Assembly (NCBI GenBank): GCA_964434285.1 | Contig: CAYSUJ010000004.1 | Location: forward strand, 18,732 to 82,731 | DNA length: 64,000 nt | Direction: 5' to 3' | Source: an uncultured Candidatus Saccharibacteria bacterium | GTDB lineage: Bacteria; Patescibacteriota; Minisyncoccia; Phycocordibacterales; UBA2100 | In this document: one piece after another, positions 2,930 to 37,437 of the stretch | How the letters are laid out: each line of letters starts with the position of its first letter | How positions within the stretch are numbered: position 1 is the first letter of the stretch | Translations under genes and position numbers: made by a program | The notes under the pieces: generated by a model | The model's input: only the letters and a program-made list of their open reading frames with translations | Told to the model about the DNA's origin: nothing | Databases searched by the model: none

Positions 2930-3160
2930 ATGTACTCTGTGCCATCCGTGCCACCGCCTTTTGAATACTCTCAAGGTTGAATCTGATGCGAAGTCGTTAA
3001 CTCCCTAATGCAGAGCACCAACTCTCTTCTTTTTTGAAGAAGTGCGAACCTCGCCATCTCAAGCCTAAAAAGAAAGACCGTAGATGCCAGCGTGTTCAAC
3101 ATAACGATACCCCGCATCTCCACTCAAGGAAATGCGGGGTACAGGACAAGTAACAAAGGG

Positions 3161-3924: not shown

Positions 3925-5940
<2,016 letters not shown>

Positions 5941-6445: not shown

Positions 6446-7065
6446 ACATTGTCATCGACCCATCGATAGAGATTTTCATAAATCGTGATTGTCCGTGGCT
6501 GCGACGTTCCTGCGTCCCACGAAATTGTAACCTCGATACGAATTTCATCTTGCGTGCCAGGAACGTAGGCAACATTCACGGTGCGACGATATGGCGAGTC
6601 ATCCCACCCGGCTTCATATCCGTACAATTCGCCATTTGTCTGGAGTAGCGGACACTGACCCGAGCACGTGGTAATCACGTTATTCCGAGTATCGATAACA
6701 AATGGTGTGCCAATCGGAATCCCGCACAGCAGTGTAACGGGAGAGCAACTTGCGTCCGGACTACTGAGCGATATGCGCAGAACATTACCATCACGAATCG
6801 CCCGAACCGTCTCTATTGCTTCTTGTGCTAGATTAAATGCGATTACCTGATCGCGCGCATAGTATGACGCAGAGAGTGATTGCATGGTGAGCGACATAGG
6901 CGCCACAATGGCAACAGTCAGAATAACGATGGCAACCATTGTCTCGATGAGGGTCATTCCATGAGTAGCTTTCAGCTGTGGGCTGCCAGCTTTCAGGAAA
7001 TATAAAAAGAAACCCCTGATCGCATCCTGGAAGGTGGAAGCTGGACACTGGGAGCTATTTTTCAT
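6442..7065 (-). CDS. type IV pilin-like / pseudopilin
   Basis: Prepilin motif G|MTLIETMVAIVILTVAIV. Confidence 0.55.
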   Translation of the reverse strand: MKNSSQCPASTFQDAIRGFFLYFLKAGSPQLKATHGMTLIETMVAIVILTVAIVAPMSLTMQSLSASYYARDQVIAFNLAQEAIETVRAIRDGNVLRISLSSPDASCSPVTLLCGIPIGTPFVIDTRNNVITTCSGQCPLLQTNGELYGYEAGWDDSPYRRTVNVAYVPGTQDEIRIEVTISWDAGTSQPRTITIYENLYRWVDDNV

Positions 7066-7748
7066 ATATCAAGTATGCGCTGAACCGCCGTCGCCTGAAT
7101 GTAAAAAGATGTTTGATGCCGCACCTCCTCCCCTCCCGCAACCCCCTTAATCACGATCACCACCTTGGGCTGCGTTGTATCCTGAGGCGTTGAGCCGACC
7201 ACGTACATCTGCATTTCTGTGATTTCCACTTCCGGCGCCGTCACCGGCAACGACGTCGCACCCCCATTCTGAGAACGATACAGTCGTGATCGGCCCTGCG
7301 CATCGTTTGCTATGCTGTAGACTGTGCGTTCAGTTTGCGCATTTGGGTTCGACCCGTGCGGCGCGAATGAAAACATGGCGGGCACCGACGTGACTGGTGA
7401 AATACCCTGCGGACAATCACCCCACGTTGGCGCCTGCGGTATGGAACTTCCTCCACAGCGGTAGTGTGATCCCATGCGTATGGCGCGCACCATGCTGTCC
7501 AGTGAGATATTGAGATTATTCATCACACTCTCGAGCGTCCGTGCCTTCCGGTTTGCATCCACCAGCGAAAGCAGCGCACCTACCGAAACGAGCATGATAA
7601 CCGCGAACAGCGATATAGAAACCACCATCTCAACGAGCGTGAAGCCGCGAGAACAAGCTGACCGTTGACCGTTGGCAATTGGCAGAAAACCGAAAAGACA
7701 TTCTTTGCATTTTTGTAAACGATGGATTGTTAGCTGTAGATTGTTCAT
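7062..7748 (-). CDS. type IV pilin-like / pseudopilin
   Basis: Prepilin motif SRG|FTLVEMVVSISLFAVIML. Confidence 0.55.
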   Translation of the reverse strand: MNNLQLTIHRLQKCKECLFGFLPIANGQRSACSRGFTLVEMVVSISLFAVIMLVSVGALLSLVDANRKARTLESVMNNLNISLDSMVRAIRMGSHYRCGGSSIPQAPTWGDCPQGISPVTSVPAMFSFAPHGSNPNAQTERTVYSIANDAQGRSRLYRSQNGGATSLPVTAPEVEITEMQMYVVGSTPQDTTQPKVVIVIKGVAGGEEVRHQTSFYIQATAVQRILDI

Positions 7749-32694: not shown

Positions 32695-32880
32695 TTACCA
32701 AGAAGACTTCTTTACGCCTGGGATGTTGCCCTCAAGCGCTTCCTCGCGGAAGCAGATGCGGCAGAGGTTGAAATCACGCATGAAGCCACGTGGGCGGCCG
32801 CACTTGAAGCAACGACGAACCGTGCGCGAAGTGAATTTCGGCGTGCGGTTAGCTTTCACGATCATTGATTTCTTGGCCAT
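32695..32880 (-). CDS. rpsZ: 30S ribosomal protein S14 type Z (zinc-binding)
   Basis: 61 aa with CFKCG...CRIC. Confidence 0.9.
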
Positions 32881-33179
32881 GGAATAGTTTCTAGTTGTTA
32901 GATTTCAGTTGCCAGTTAAAACAGCAACTTAATCTGAATGCCTAAAGGAGAGTTTCGGGGCTTGCACCTTGGCTTTCGCCGAGAGGTTATAGCGTCCCAA
33001 TCCGTGGCCTAGATTCTGGCAGTTTACCCCGAGCGCAGTCGAGGGGTTTCCTCGGCCAGCTGACGTACTTGCTCAAACTCAGACCCCCTATGAGGCTTGG
33101 GCATATTACTTGAGCCTGTTTGAAAAGTCAAAGGGTTGGTGTAATGTCTCGATAGATCCGAATTAGGGGAGAATAGAAC

Positions 33180-33506
33180 ATGTTCTGGAAGACAAAAGCC
33201 CGCGATAACATCAGTTTCGTCTTTGGTTCTAAGGCCGCAAAAGCGCTTCGGGAAATAACGGCTTCATATGGGTTCGACTCTGATGCGCACACGATTCGAA
33301 TGGCACTCACAAGTGCTCGATCATTAATGAACATCGAAAAAGAACGGGGGTGGCAGGTTATTTTGCGGGACGAACTTGGCAACGAGTGGAGTTTTTCGAT
33401 GAAAGACCCCACTAAGGCGTTTCCCATAGGAACGCACAAGGCCCCGCCCCCGGACAAGCCTCGAGCCGTCGGAAATGTCATTCATTTCGACTTTGGGAAA
33501 CAATAG
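33180..33506 (+). CDS. hypothetical protein (108 aa) with its own terminator
   Basis: GGGGAG ribosome-binding site and a plausible TTGAAA/TAATGT promoter upstream. A strong terminator follows. Confidence 0.35.
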   Translation: MFWKTKARDNISFVFGSKAAKALREITASYGFDSDAHTIRMALTSARSLMNIEKERGWQVILRDELGNEWSFSMKDPTKAFPIGTHKAPPPDKPRAVGNVIHFDFGKQ

Positions 33507-33526
33507 GAGACCGCCACTCCTGTTAA

Positions 33527-33550
33527 GACCGCCTCTCGGCGGTCTTTTTC
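33527..33550 (+). terminator. rho-independent terminator
   Basis: gaccgcc-tctc-ggcggtc hairpin followed by TTTTTC. Confidence 0.7.
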
Positions 33551-33557
33551 TTGCTGC

Positions 33558-33585
33558 TTGACAAATTTATACCAAAATATATATT
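33558..33585 (+). promoter_or_regulatory. sigma70-like promoter for dinJ-yafQ
   Basis: TTGACA-N16-TATATT. The ATG of dinJ is 8 nt downstream of the -10 element, so the transcript is leaderless or near-leaderless. Confidence 0.5.
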
Positions 33586-33592
33586 TGAGTAT

Positions 33593-33865
33593 ATGGCTAC
33601 TACTACCGTACTTTTTAAGACCGATAAGAAATTAAAAGCGGCTGCGCAGGCGACTGCAAAGAAGATGGGCATCCCCTTTTCTGCTCTTCTTAATAACGCG
33701 ATGAGGGAGATTGTCGAGAAACAAGAAGTAACCTTTTCGGCGAAGCCGCTCGTGCCTACTCCCTATTTGAGACGGATATTGGAACAGGGGGAAAAAAATC
33801 TAAAAGAAGGAAGGGTTACTTACTACAACAGTCTTGAAGAGATGCGTGCAGCTCTCGACAAGTAA
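33593..33865 (+). CDS. dinJ: RelB/DinJ-family antitoxin (the listed ORF starts at a TTG at 33551)
   Basis: MATTTVLFKTDKKLKAAAQATAKKMGIPFSALLNNAMREIVEKQEV... Confidence 0.7.
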   Translation: MATTTVLFKTDKKLKAAAQATAKKMGIPFSALLNNAMREIVEKQEVTFSAKPLVPTPYLRRILEQGEKNLKEGRVTYYNSLEEMRAALDK

Positions 33866-33869
33866 CACT

Positions 33870-34133
33870 ATGCGAACTGTTGGTGATAAGGTGTTTAATC
33901 GTCAATACAAAAAGCTTGCCAAATCAATCCAGGATAAGCTGTGGGAACGTCTCGCGCTTCTTATCCAAAACGAATCACATCCCTTGCTGCACGACCATAA
34001 ACTCAATCCGCCATATGATGGCTACCGGAGCATCAATATCACCGGGGACTATCGCCTGGTGTACAAGAAGATGGATGAGGATACTTACTATCTTCGCGCC
34101 ATTGGAACGCATCACCAACTGTACGGATCGTAA
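33870..34133 (+). CDS. yafQ: YafQ/RelE-family toxin (the listed ORF starts at 33834)
   Basis: ...LHDHKLNPPYDGYRSINITGDYRLVYKKMDEDTYYLRAIGTHHQLY. Confidence 0.7.
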   Translation: MRTVGDKVFNRQYKKLAKSIQDKLWERLALLIQNESHPLLHDHKLNPPYDGYRSINITGDYRLVYKKMDEDTYYLRAIGTHHQLYGS

Positions 34134-34263
34134 GGAGGCCGGATGGTGGAGAACAGCGGAAAAATTAGAGCACGCCACGGGCTATCCAAAAATAGAGGCG
34201 GGCATATAGTTCCCCGCAGGTACGGAATGAACCGTACACATTGAGGAAACTAAGGAGGTTCAA

Positions 34264-34713
34264 ATGGCATTACGCAGAGGGTTTATGCTCCTTTGTGCCG
34301 CACTTCTCTTCTCTCTCCCGGCGCACGCAAACTCCTTGGCACCCTTCTCGGGCAGTGGAGGGGCGAGCGGAACGATTCTGCTCGTGGGCAAGTCGAGCGC
34401 GGATCGCGCGAATTGCTCCCGACGCTCAAGTGTCGTCGGGAGCAGTGGGCTCTCGTTCTCGCTCTCGTGCAGCGGCGGACGCGATTTCAACCTTTCATGC
34501 TTGTTCAGTACGACAGGTTCACGCGTGAGCGGGAACTGCAGCGCGGGAATCGCAAGCCTCTCGGGAAGCGGCACCGTGAACGGCAAAGTGATGCAGTTGT
34601 CGATGCAAAGCAGTTTCGGGACGCATGCGTATATGACGATCACGCCGTCGTCGCTCTCGTTCCGATCGCCGGACGCGAAATATGTGAAATCGCTGCAGAT
34701 CAGCAGCCGATAA
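34264..34713 (+). CDS. secreted Ser/Gly-rich small protein
   Basis: Strong ribosome-binding site AAGGAGG. Signal peptide MALRRGFMLLCAALLFSLPAHA. Confidence 0.45.
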   Translation: MALRRGFMLLCAALLFSLPAHANSLAPFSGSGGASGTILLVGKSSADRANCSRRSSVVGSSGLSFSLSCSGGRDFNLSCLFSTTGSRVSGNCSAGIASLSGSGTVNGKVMQLSMQSSFGTHAYMTITPSSLSFRSPDAKYVKSLQISSR

Positions 34714-34729
34714 GACAATTGATACGAGA

Positions 34730-34751
34730 GGGCGGCGCCTGCCGCCCTTTT
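34730..34751 (+). terminator. rho-independent terminator
   Basis: gggcggc-gcct-gccgccc hairpin followed by TTTT. Confidence 0.7.
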
Positions 34752-34947
34752 GAATGGAAAGACCACTCTTGCGAGTGGTCATTCTTCCTTATGCTTTGAG
34801 CGGGAGGGTCAAGTCACTAAGATTTTCCATCGCACTGTGCGCTCGTAAAATCTAAGTGCTTCCTCCCCGGGCTCGCGGTTTTTGCTTCGCAAAAACATCG
34901 CTCCGCCTCTTGCCTGCTGCCGGACAAGAAGAAGTTCTTGTCCTGCG

Positions 34948-35488: not shown

Positions 35489-35800
35489 TTATGCGATCTT
35501 AGCCTTACTCTTTACTGCCACACGCTCACGCGCGCCGGTCTTCGAGCGCTCGATGCGGATGCGAGTTGGCTTCCCATCTTTTGGATCTGCGAGCATCACG
35601 TTTGAAACGTGAATCGGCATCACCTTCTCGATGATCTGACCCTTGCGCGTGCGCTGATTGGGCTTTCGATGCTTCTTCGACATATTGAGGCCATCGATAA
35701 CAACCATCTCCTTCTTTGGAAGCACACGCGCAACAGTACCCGAGCTGCCCTTGCTCTTTCCTGCGATGACTATGACTTTGTCTCCTTTCTTGATTTTCAT
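35489..35800 (-). CDS. rplX: 50S ribosomal protein L24
   Basis: MKIKKGDKVIVIAGKSKG (KOW motif). Confidence 0.9.
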   Translation of the reverse strand: MKIKKGDKVIVIAGKSKGSSGTVARVLPKKEMVVIDGLNMSKKHRKPNQRTRKGQIIEKVMPIHVSNVMLADPKDGKPTRIRIERSKTGARERVAVKSKAKIA

Positions 35801-35969
35801 AAAATTTCAGATTTTGAATGATTGATTGCACTCAGAATCGGGCTTGTTTGAGGCAAAACCGAGCGTTTGGAAACACTGAATGACCGCGGCACTATACCTT
35901 CCTTTTGGCTAAAAAACAAGACCCCGGGCGCTCGCGCGTCCGGGGTCATAATCTACATGCCAAGCACTT

Positions 35970-36827
35970 CTATGCGGCGAGACCGAAGCCTTTAAGGGTG
36001 GCCTGCGCGACCCGCTTGCCGAGCTCCTCGTTCTTGAAGCGCTGGGCGTTGATGTGCGGACCGGAGCCGAAGAAGCCGCTCGAAACCGAAAAGCCGTGCA
36101 CGGTGCCTACCTTGATGGCGGCGAGCACCTCATCCTTCGTCCAGCTGTAGAGGCCGTTCGTCGGATTGCGCATTTCTTCGGCCTGACCGACCAGCTGGAA
36201 GAAGCTGGCTTCCTCCTTGAGGTCGGCGAACGAGAGCGGCTGGTTGTTGTGGTACTTCCAGACGTTGCCACGTTCGATGAGTTCGATCCATGACTCCTCG
36301 GCGGTTGTCGAAACGCCTGCCGAGTAGTTGACCCCGTAGAAGGGCCATGGCGAACCGTCGCTACGACCTTCGTGCATCTGGTGATAGTCGATGCGGCCGA
36401 TGGTCATCTCGTGCTCGATGCCGTCGTGCGGAAAGCGGACACGCACCTTGTCGTGCTCCCAGAACTTTGTCTCCGGGAGATCGCCGAGGCGAACGTACTT
36501 CTCGCGAAGAAGACCGCTTGCGTCGCGCATGGCGGCGTCACGGCGCCTCTCCTCGTCCTTGTCGACCATCTCGATTGACCAGTCACCGGGAACGATACGA
36601 CCGTCCCGAAGCCAGATGGACACTGCACCTTTGCAGTGATAGACGCCGGGCTGTCGCACGAGGACTGGAACACGCGGTATGTAGGTAACGGCGTCGTAGA
36701 AACCGCTGACGATGCCGATGGTGCCGTCGGGGACATTCTTGTAGGTGTCTGTCCACGCACGTCGCTCGGGATCGACCTTGAACATGACCTCGTCGCCAAT
36801 CTGCAGAAGTTCGGAAAGAATCATCAA
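35970..36827 (-). CDS. hypothetical cytoplasmic protein (285 aa) inserted between rplN and rplX
   Basis: Strong ribosome-binding site AGGAGG 7 nt from the ATG. Has its own consensus promoter. GC content is higher than the flanking ribosomal genes. No family recognised. Confidence 0.5.
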   Translation of the reverse strand: MMILSELLQIGDEVMFKVDPERRAWTDTYKNVPDGTIGIVSGFYDAVTYIPRVPVLVRQPGVYHCKGAVSIWLRDGRIVPGDWSIEMVDKDEERRRDAAMRDASGLLREKYVRLGDLPETKFWEHDKVRVRFPHDGIEHEMTIGRIDYHQMHEGRSDGSPWPFYGVNYSAGVSTTAEESWIELIERGNVWKYHNNQPLSFADLKEEASFFQLVGQAEEMRNPTNGLYSWTKDEVLAAIKVGTVHGFSVSSGFFGSGPHINAQRFKNEELGKRVAQATLKGFGLAA

Positions 36828-36886
36828 AGCCTCCTATTTTGAAGTCTTGCATATAAAAGTGGCTTTCTGAGCCACTTTCTATTTAT

Positions 36887-36914
36887 ATTATACTTTATAC
36901 ATGCGATATGTCAA
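36887..36914 (-). promoter_or_regulatory. consensus sigma70 promoter
   Basis: On the minus strand: TTGACA (36914-36909), 16-nt spacer, TATAAT (36892-36887). Confidence 0.55.
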
Positions 36915-37056
36915 TGCCATGGAGGGGGGAAAGCGAGACGGAGGGGTGAAAGTGCTTCACGAGGGACCCCGCAGCTGGCGAGGATGAGCCCGATTTGCAA
37001 GCTTGCAAATCGGGTCTGCCCGAGGGGGGCATTTTCACCTCTCCGCGAGCGGAGAT

Positions 37057-37437
37057 TTACACGATCTCCGGCGCGAGCGTACCAATGCGCTGATAGCCAG
37101 CTTCAACAACTTCGCGTGGGATAGGACCGAAGACACGAGATGCCTTTGGTTCCTTTGGCTCCTTACCAGAACCAGTGATGAGGACAACTGCGTTTTCATC
37201 AAAGCGGACATAGCTGCCGTCCTTGCGGCGGAGTGGCTTTGTCTGGCGAACGATGACTGCCTTGTGCACCTCCTTCTTCTTCACTGCTTTACGCGGCTGT
37301 GCTGTCTGGATGGAAATAACTACCTGGTCGCCCACCTGTGCGTAGCGCTTCTTGGAGCCGCCGAGCACCTTGAACACACGACCCATGGTTGCGCCGGAGT
37401 TGTCTGCGATCTTCACGAGAGTTCGGTCTTGAATCAT
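37057..37437 (-). CDS. rplN: 50S ribosomal protein L14
   Basis: MIQDRTLVKIADNSGA... Confidence 0.9.
   Translation of the reverse strand: MIQDRTLVKIADNSGATMGRVFKVLGGSKKRYAQVGDQVVISIQTAQPRKAVKKKEVHKAVIVRQTKPLRRKDGSYVRFDENAVVLITGSGKEPKEPKASRVFGPIPREVVEAGYQRIGTLAPEIV

Follow-up and report, generated by a model that had tools for sequence, protein, structure and literature searches.

Morons are recognized in phage genomes by a promoter and terminator of their own, a GC content unlike that of their neighbors, and their status as obvious additions when related genomes are compared (PMC3594210). Phage morons such as the HK97 gene 15 element (PMC3594210) bring a σ70 promoter and a factor-independent terminator, deviate in GC, sit between genes that are adjacent in relatives, spread horizontally, and usually hold one accessory gene. 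In T4-type phages, promoter-plus-stem-loop (PeSL) cassettes bracket small non-essential genes between a σ70-like promoter and a stem-loop terminator, and these units have been proposed to move as mini-circles, driving modular shuffling (PMC2839356). Here we describe a unit of similar architecture that lies within the spc operon of ribosomal protein genes of an uncultured Candidatus Saccharibacteria bacterium (assembly GCA_964434285.1, contig CAYSUJ010000004.1, positions 18,732–82,731 of the forward strand; this stretch of 64,000 nt is hereafter the window). We consider it likely that the unit is a horizontally acquired, self-contained, moron-like single-gene expression cassette that was inserted into the spc operon in this lineage only; that it represents an autonomous, horizontally mobile accessory gene is firmly supported.

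Results

The cassette is a lineage-specific insertion between rplN and rplX

The S10-spc ribosomal protein cluster lies on the minus strand of the window, as judged from open reading frame (ORF) calls and from the Pfam labels of identical Logan contigs (L006 and L007). Positions 35801–37056 are exactly the rplN–rplX spacer, which is 1256 nt long and contains a complete transcription unit. A metagenome scan with the uL24 protein of the window as the query returned 80 loci, 77 of which also carried rplN (≤90% identity). The rplN–rplX spacers of these 77 related loci measure −4 to 326 nt, mostly about 10 nt, and none of them holds a homolog of the cassette ORF. In the nearest metagenome relatives, whose rplX is 74% identical to that of the window, the spacer is ≈100 nt long, and its tail is similar to the final ≈30 nt before rplX in the window. 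The cassette is a lineage-specific insertion in this spacer, and the horizontal acquisition proposed in a preliminary description of the sequence is borne out by the 77 empty sites, by homologs at unrelated positions, and by a gene GC content that is decoupled from that of the host.

At the window copy, we found no flanking direct or inverted repeats, no terminal inverted repeats, and no target-site duplication. The ORF of the cassette, the only one in the unit, has no similarity to transposases, and no transposase or integrase gene lies near it; the marks of an insertion sequence or transposon are thus lacking here.

A chimeric assembly, a contaminating fragment, or a spurious ORF might be suspected from the atypical GC content of the gene and from two Logan contigs that break near it. 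Both junctions, however, were seen in independent Logan assemblies from two sequencing runs (rplN to the gene in L007, and the gene to rplX–rplE in L006). The contig breaks fall at a palindrome and at hairpins, with L006 ending just past the palindrome, and this coincidence leaves no sign of a misjoin. In addition, the arrangement at another locus of the same family (L001, described below) recurs in several samples that were assembled independently, and the protein yields a confident structure model. The ratio of nonsynonymous to synonymous divergence (dN/dS) is 0.10–0.21 in pairwise comparisons of nine close copies, at a synonymous divergence (dS) of 0.5–1.4, indicating a real gene under purifying selection. 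An artifact is, in our judgment, next to impossible.

The same spacer also carries an insertion in the nearest relatives (L041 and L047), where a small hairpin element (ccccagtaccacaaatc...gatttggctacgggg) is located ≈100 nt upstream of position 3001 and is flanked by a duplication of the first ≈15–21 nt of rplX. The rplN–rplX spacer is thus a recurrent insertion spot in this lineage.

The unit has its own predicted promoter and terminator

Read on the minus strand, the unit is ≈1.0 kb long and runs from a σ70 promoter through a 5′ stem-loop, an AGGAGG sequence, and a 284-aa ORF to a terminator. The features of the spacer and its flanks, in the direction of transcription, are as follows.

37057–37437, minus strand: rplN (uL14), the upstream flank; ORF, with Pfam Ribosomal_L14 on the identical gene of L007
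36915–37056, minus strand: structured spacer of 142 nt from the rplN stop to the cassette promoter; fold −57.5 kcal/mol, z −4.2
36989–37014: perfect 26-nt palindrome CCCGATTTGCAAGCTTGCAAATCGGG inside the 142-nt spacer; found once in the window (chance expectation 0)
36914–36887, minus strand: predicted σ70-type promoter TTGACA-16-TATAAT; 12 of 12 consensus matches
36878–36856, minus strand: stem-loop AAAGTGGCT-CAGAA-AGCCACTTT at the 5′ terminus of the predicted transcript; z −3.1 and z −4.8 in two fold calculations
36835–36830, minus strand: Shine–Dalgarno sequence AGGAGG, 5 nt upstream of the ATG
ATG at 36824 to stop codon TAG at 35970–35972, minus strand: ORF of 284 aa, member of an uncharacterized family
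35947–35911, minus strand: predicted intrinsic terminator GACCCCGG-A-CGC-GCGA-GCG-C-CCGGGGTC followed by TTGTTTTTT; −30.1 kcal/mol, z −4.2
35919–35891, minus strand: weak promoter-like sequence TTGTTT-17-TATAGT; 8 of 12 matches, the sole such site after the cassette terminator
35801–35910, minus strand: spacer of 110 nt from the cassette to rplX; unstructured, z −0.2
35489–35800, minus strand: rplX (uL24), the downstream flank; ORF, with a Pfam label on the Logan contig

The perfect promoter and the strong ribosome-binding site noted in the preliminary description are both present as reported; a perfect σ70 match with a 16–18-nt spacer is expected only ≈0.02 times per 64 kb, counting both strands. 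The gene reported there also stands, whereas its length does not. The 285 aa of the ORF listing (35970–36827, minus strand) are counted from a TTG, and the true start is almost certainly the ATG at 36824, one codon past it, because the TTG is only 2 nt from the Shine–Dalgarno sequence and the homologs begin at Met, all with N termini of the form M-T/I-L-T/S-E-L. The consensus promoter, the 5′ stem-loop, and the perfect Shine–Dalgarno sequence make high expression of the gene plausible.

The terminator consists of a hairpin at 35947–35920 with the T-run TTGTTTTTT next to it. The 142-nt spacer upstream of the promoter has no T-run and so is not terminator-like, and no similar sequence was found in any other fetched locus. 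Searches against Rfam found no known RNAs in the cassette.

The terminator and the 5′ stem-loop are both additions to the earlier account, and they change the interpretation. The gene had been thought to ride on the transcription of the ribosomal operon, which would give its location a meaning. A unit with its own promoter and strong terminator, whose counterparts lie outside ribosomal operons, does not fit that view: its terminator should break the operon rather than exploit it, and its place among the ribosomal genes is most readily taken as incidental.

The neighboring ribosomal protein genes differ in their translation signals. No AGGAGG-type Shine–Dalgarno sequence lies within ≈12 nt of the start of rplX (35800), rplE (35487), rplN (37437), rpsQ (37705), rpsN (32880), or rpsH (32687). 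The perfect motif in the cassette and its absence from these genes suggest that the signals of the cassette are its own.

Copies in other bacteria share the cassette and not the neighborhood

Including the window copy, we examined 18 bacterial loci, and these represent 18 different neighborhoods. The window copy is the only one of the 18 in a ribosomal operon, and the idea that homologs elsewhere might also be embedded in such operons was not upheld. Six of the loci place the cassette beside or near RNA genes, a riboswitch, or a nuclease gene:

L001: cassette between tRNA-Leu and RNase P RNA
L015: cassette directly past tRNA-Ser, with the 3′ end of the tRNA right at the −35 element
L008: cassette ahead of an S-adenosylmethionine (SAM) riboswitch and metK
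L023: cassette past a helicase-nuclease gene
L020: cassette at tRNA-Glu
L022: tmRNA ≤1.5 kb from the cassette

At the remaining loci, the cassette adjoins peptidases, kinases, and other ordinary genes. The expression signals recur across these settings. A promoter with at least 9 of 12 consensus matches is located 27–80 nt before the ATG at 16 of the 18 loci (14 of these with a perfect TTGACA), and a hairpin with a T-run follows 36–61 nt past the stop codon at 17 of the 18. Most close homolog cassettes have a 5′ hairpin at the same place, with varying sequence. Where the cassettes can be aligned (L001, L008, L015, L017, and L018), nucleotide homology extends from ≈10–15 nt before the −35 element to the T-run of the terminator. 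Judging from these alignments, the unit transferred among bacteria appears to be the bare promoter-to-terminator cassette.

Two further observations concern the surroundings of the gene. The motif GCACATTCYCAA occurs ≈20–35 nt before the ATG, between the 5′ hairpin and the Shine–Dalgarno sequence, in most cassettes and across subfamilies (5′ untranslated regions of L001, L008, L015, L017, L018, L020, L021, L022, and L033); it is missing from the window copy and may be a regulatory site. Structured RNAs lie ≈0.3–0.8 kb downstream at three loci, namely, a LOOT RNA (L005, 6746–6867), the RNase P RNA (L001, 6140–6531), and the SAM riboswitch (L008, 6406–6517), and they account for the seemingly empty gaps of ≈650–800 nt past the gene at these loci.

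Gene composition is nearly constant and independent of the host

The window gene has a GC content of 60.1% and a third-position GC content (GC3) of 0.775, the highest among the 75 ORFs of the window (mean 0.58, SD 0.078). The statement that its GC content exceeds that of the flanking ribosomal genes is true, but the difference is modest locally and becomes striking only against other genomes. The gene has 55–62% GC at 17 of the 18 bacterial loci (49% at L025), with flanks of 29–56%. Mean gene GC3 over the 18 loci is 0.72, and gene GC3 is not correlated with host GC (r = 0.24, p = 0.34). The extreme is L001, where a gene of 58% GC resides in a genome of 29–31% GC. The composition of the gene is therefore near-constant and independent of the host. 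Because copies separated by dS of 0.5–1.4 show no amelioration (except at L025), most of their divergence would have arisen outside their present hosts, and this in turn suggests that the gene is often acquired from a GC-rich pool and lost again.

Repeats surround the cassette at a minority of loci

Flank repeats and target duplications are missing at 11 of 15 loci, and duplicated or inverted host flanks are present at the other 4. At L023 (3061–5263), the last ≈100 nt of a gene for a 1001-aa helicase-nuclease (...CEYCALHEMT) are present three times at ≈90% identity, and these copies bracket two inserts, the cassette and a gene for a 250-aa IS200-like protein (motif HAWCLMPNHYHLLV). This arrangement suggests either an insertion with a long target duplication or a Campbell-type integration of circular DNA. 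At L021, a perfect 178-nt inverted repeat (5714–5891 and 6930–7107) surrounds the cassette; it could mark an invertible segment or be an assembly artifact. The cassette of L024 is flanked by a 52-nt direct repeat with 98% identity and that of L022 by a diverged 38-nt direct repeat.

A rival reading is that the cassette is a non-autonomous element mobilized in trans by a recombinase encoded elsewhere, for which an IS200/IS605-type Y1 transposase that recognizes hairpins at the ends and integron- or PeSL-like recombination would be candidates. The 5′ stem-loop and the terminator, which give the unit a hairpin near each end, could then be recognition structures, and the lack of terminal inverted repeats and target duplications would be as in IS200/IS605. 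The L023 cassette, which lies beside an IS200-like gene with each insert bounded by the same ≈100-nt target copy, fits this scheme, as do the promoter-plus-stem-loop cassettes and mini-circles by which T4-type phages shuffle genes (PMC2839356). The hairpin sequences, however, differ between subgroups and resemble ordinary stabilizer and terminator structures with a T-run, and the edges of homology coincide with expression signals, as would be expected from selection combined with deletion trimming. Moreover, a conserved flanking target motif is not visible, and the window copy has no transposase or integrase nearby. We give movement in trans little chance and favor the self-contained, moron-like cassette.

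The cassette encodes a member of a large unannotated family

Relatives of the cassette protein number 139 in a 90%-clustered collection and 498 as representatives at 50% clustering (361 at E ≤1e-10). Almost all are 270–310 aa long, align over their full length, and are labeled hypothetical. Named sources are Parcubacteria, Magasanikbacteria, Kaiserbacteria, Nomurabacteria, and Paceibacterota. A Rhizobium/Agrobacterium subfamily of 17 members, all likewise hypothetical, is 26–32% identical and has the same architecture. Longer members (525, 366, and 353 aa) contain extra regions without a Pfam domain, and P0120 and P0108 have the appearance of fusions or mis-calls that involve a transposase and part of a proline dehydrogenase.

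The preliminary description found no recognizable family, and our searches agree: Pfam (with the single protein and with 53 members), NCBIfam, PHROGs (with bacterial and phage members), and PADLOC gave no match, and a profile search of PDB sequences returned only noise. No family of the PADLOC-DB defense models matched even at E ≤10. A literature search by locus tag and by topic retrieved nothing on this family. A tblastn search against plasmids produced a single match, the Rhizobium homolog on a chromid.

This last homolog (L027, 4704–5504, corresponding to Rhizobium leguminosarum TP16 pRlX5, NZ_CP140867.1, 1145333–1146133) is distant and full-length at 266 aa and is unannotated in PLSDB. Its GC content is host-like (60.5% versus 63%).

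Relatives on viral contigs lack private signals

Members that include P0109 and P0091 (each ≈40% identical) and are ≈35–45% identical overall occur on IMG/VR viral contigs of 132, 152, 170, and 181 kb, inside long runs of small unannotated ORFs on the same strand. These copies have the native GC content of their contigs and no private promoter or terminator. Their neighbors match CobT- and porphyrin-type families of the PHROG category "moron/AMG/host takeover", a TROVE/Ro60-like protein, UvdE, and FolE2. No gene is conserved as a neighbor across the phage, alphaproteobacterial, and other loci, which suggests that the protein acts alone. By sequence similarity, the family appears to be common to Patescibacteria, a few Alphaproteobacteria, and large uncultivated phages. 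An IMG/VR scan with the alignment of the close clade found no match. There are no phage genes near the window cassette, whose flanks are S10-spc genes, and thus no indication that it resides in a phage or prophage.

One further IMG/VR entry classified as viral, L039 (IMGVR_UViG_3300046665_000548; 607,744 bp), has two genes of interest near its homolog of the cassette gene, one for an HWE histidine kinase and one for a 978-aa protein whose C-terminal domain is of the phage-sheath type. The homolog itself is of the GC-rich, promoter-bearing form.

The family could also be a new minimal selfish element, with a product that acts as a new homing or insertion enzyme, catalyzing or targeting its own insertion into intergenic sites beside conserved genes and so copying its cassette, as free-standing homing endonuclease genes do in T4-type phages. 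Several sites do abut very conserved genes (rplN/rplX in the window, tRNA-Ser at L015, tRNA-Leu and RNase P RNA at L001, tRNA-Glu at L020, and tmRNA at L022), and the cassette holds nothing but one gene. High turnover combined with purifying selection would fit a homing cycle, and the duplicated or inverted host flanks at 4 of 15 loci are expected from recombinational repair. The protein, however, is acidic and has no nuclease signature: LAGLIDADG, GIY-YIG, HNH, His-Cys, PD-(D/E)XK, and EDxHD domains had no Pfam or NCBIfam match in 53 members and no significant fold match. The insertion site differs at every locus despite 70–85% protein identity, many sites adjoin ordinary genes, and the viral-contig copies are ordinary operon genes with native GC. 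On balance, we hold a selfish element to be very unlikely. If it were true, circulation of such an element between large phages and many Patescibacteria lineages would explain both the constant GC content and the rapid turnover.

The predicted structure contains two Tudor/SH3-like barrels

An AlphaFold2 model built from the 53-sequence alignment (predicted local distance difference test score 94.3; predicted template modeling score 0.84) comprises two β barrels (residues ≈1–100 and ≈105–192) and a C-terminal domain of α-β-α-β-β-α topology (194–284). In the window, the modeled domains correspond to the following positions.

≈36525–36824, minus strand: barrel 1
≈36249–36512, minus strand: barrel 2
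35973–36245, minus strand: C-terminal domain

The only fold matches in the PDB are barrels of the Tudor, PsaE, and KOW types, including those of eS4, uL2, Spt5/NusG KOW, and PSHCP, and the model has five-stranded barrels that can be superposed on Tudor, KOW, and PsaE. No PDB entry matches the whole protein, and among solved structures the third domain has no fold neighbor. The family is acidic (median isoelectric point 5.4) and hydrophilic, and the N-terminal sequence has no evident signal peptide. The model and sequences together predict acidic, cytoplasmic proteins of ≈280 aa with two Tudor/SH3-like barrels and a C-terminal α/β domain.

We also considered whether the N terminus might be a duplicated KOW motif of rplX and rejected this, since all homologs, which are located away from rplX, share that N terminus.

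The barrels bear on whether the protein could be a beneficial host factor with a binding partner in the transcription or translation machinery (comparable to CarD, NusG-KOW, and PSHCP), in which case its operon position would be meaningful. In addition to the exclusively SH3-, Tudor-, and KOW-type fold matches, the signals that predict strong constitutive expression, the purifying selection, and the location of the window copy between uL14 and uL24 would suit such a role. Yet only 1 of the 18 bacterial loci, that of the window, is in a ribosomal operon; the gene is missing from the 77 related spc operons; and its sporadic distribution and foreign GC content are unlike those of a host factor, as is the terminator between it and the downstream ribosomal protein genes. 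An acidic isoelectric point is also atypical for RNA binders. A clear match to a ribosome-associated factor normally encoded at this position was looked for, and none was found: with its absence from 77 operons, its homologs elsewhere, and no Pfam or NCBIfam match, the gene does not look like a native spc-operon ribosomal or ribosome-associated factor. We judge a host factor of this kind to be unlikely and retain the interpretation of an acquired accessory cassette.

The spc operon of the window is interrupted twice

The preliminary description called the cassette a second interruption of the spc operon, and an opposite-strand island between rplE and rpsN (32881–34947) is indeed also present. 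It encodes a YafQ/ParE-type toxin with a small antitoxin-like ORF upstream of it, an ORF of 108 aa, and a protein of 149 aa whose N terminus is hydrophobic and resembles a signal peptide.

34761–34780: terminator-like bidirectional hairpin in the rplE–rpsN island
33180–33506, 33551–33865, 33834–34133, and 34264–34713, plus strand: island genes
33558–33585, plus strand: promoter of the toxin–antitoxin pair; 11 of 12 matches
33131–33103, minus strand: promoter-like site ahead of rpsN; 9 of 12 matches
32695–32880: rpsN (Zn-type S14), flank of the island

The spc operon here thus appears to be split by the cassette and the island into at least three units. On L006, the gene for S5 is followed by that for L15, with no L30. 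This order is consistent with Patescibacteria (the Candidate Phyla Radiation, CPR), as are the source names of the homologs; uL30 is often missing in CPR bacteria (PMC9297842).

Discussion

The course of events that we propose is that the cassette entered the short rplN–rplX spacer of the spc operon in this lineage only and that, across its hosts, it would be gained and lost often enough for its GC3 (≈0.72) not to drift to the host value. Expression would be high and constitutive, driven by the promoter of the cassette and by read-through from rplN. Its terminator would split the operon, leaving rplX–rplE to rely on read-through or on the weak promoter downstream.

Several points weigh against this proposal. 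What is said here of the promoter, the terminator, and the expression level is predicted from consensus sequences. We found no mechanism of movement; neither a recombinase nor terminal inverted repeats nor a target-site duplication was seen in the window. The copies are mutually old (dS 0.5–1.4; best nucleotide identity 86%), so that recent transfer is read solely from unameliorated GC, for which selective constraint on GC would be an alternative account. The viral status of the phage relatives derives from the IMG/VR classification, the gene-density pattern, and a few PHROG matches; hallmark structural genes were not seen in the fetched flanks of the viral contigs, and a tblastn search of the cultured phages in INPHARED with three family members found no homologs. 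The L039 entry, moreover, is probably a bacterial replicon and not a phage.

As to function, we tentatively suggest an accessory protein related to conflict, such as one for phage exclusion or for immunity, or else a factor of phage origin that interacts with the host. Such a protein would bind a macromolecular partner, whether protein or nucleic acid, through its Tudor/SH3-like barrels and would not be a ribosomal component; many moron products and phage early proteins hold partners in this way. The suggestion comes with neither a defense-family match in PADLOC nor a conserved neighbor gene, which counts against it. The Rhizobium/Agrobacterium homologs offer a cultivable entry to function.

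Few gene arrays in bacteria are as conserved as the S10-spc cluster, and a foreign unit in its midst that has its own promoter and a strong terminator indicates that even this operon can be broken, here twice. The pattern across the family is of greater interest: a cassette of ≈1 kb, kept at ≈58–60% GC in hosts of 29–56% GC, under purifying selection and with relatives in phages, marks a widespread, unannotated, and apparently high-turnover accessory gene of Patescibacteria. The gene offers a concrete opening for studies of gene exchange among streamlined episymbiotic bacteria where no mobile-element machinery can be recognized. Horizontally transferred moron-like cassettes are already known as a kind. 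Our data show the anatomy, the insertion, the family, the purifying selection, the decoupling of GC, and how the phage copies differ in context from the bacterial ones. New are the family itself, which is large and unannotated and whose C-terminal domain has no solved fold relative; the way it behaves in Patescibacteria, as a bare unit from promoter to terminator whose composition does not follow that of the host; the relatives that tie it to large uncultivated phages; and the insertion of one copy into the spc operon.

Compared with the described systems, the Tudor/SH3-like proteins (eukaryotic Tudor, PsaE, the KOW domains of NusG/Spt5 and eS4, and picocyanobacterial PSHCP) resemble the cassette product at the level of the fold only, with 7–25% identity. 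Like the integron gene cassettes, the unit is a single-ORF mobile entity found in many genomic backgrounds, but integron cassettes are normally promoterless, end in attC, and lie in arrays beside intI, whereas the unit described here stands alone, is preceded by a promoter of its own, and ends in a plain terminator; the marks of an integron cassette were not found at the window copy, attC not having been searched for with a dedicated model. Like the seg and mob free-standing homing endonuclease genes of T4, whose dynamics are selfish, it is a single gene with its own signals, is inserted between conserved genes, and has a sporadic distribution; it differs in its varied sites, its acidic protein, and the absence of a GIY-YIG, HNH, LAGLIDADG, or PD-(D/E)XK motif or fold; neither a homing nuclease domain nor a PADLOC-DB defense family was found in the protein. 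The PeSL cassettes have a similar architecture, although the window copy has no flanking repeated PeSL motif, the hairpins and promoter contexts vary by subgroup, and the hosts are bacteria of many lineages. The closest likeness is to the phage morons, in that the window copy combines a predicted promoter, a terminator, a deviant composition, and a position between genes that are adjacent in relatives. It differs from them in that its protein family is unrelated to the described moron products, its relatives on viral contigs have no private signals, and the cassette itself resides in a bacterial chromosome, in the essential spc operon, instead of a phage or prophage. Given this location in a housekeeping operon, the cassette is best called moron-like rather than a moron in the strict sense.

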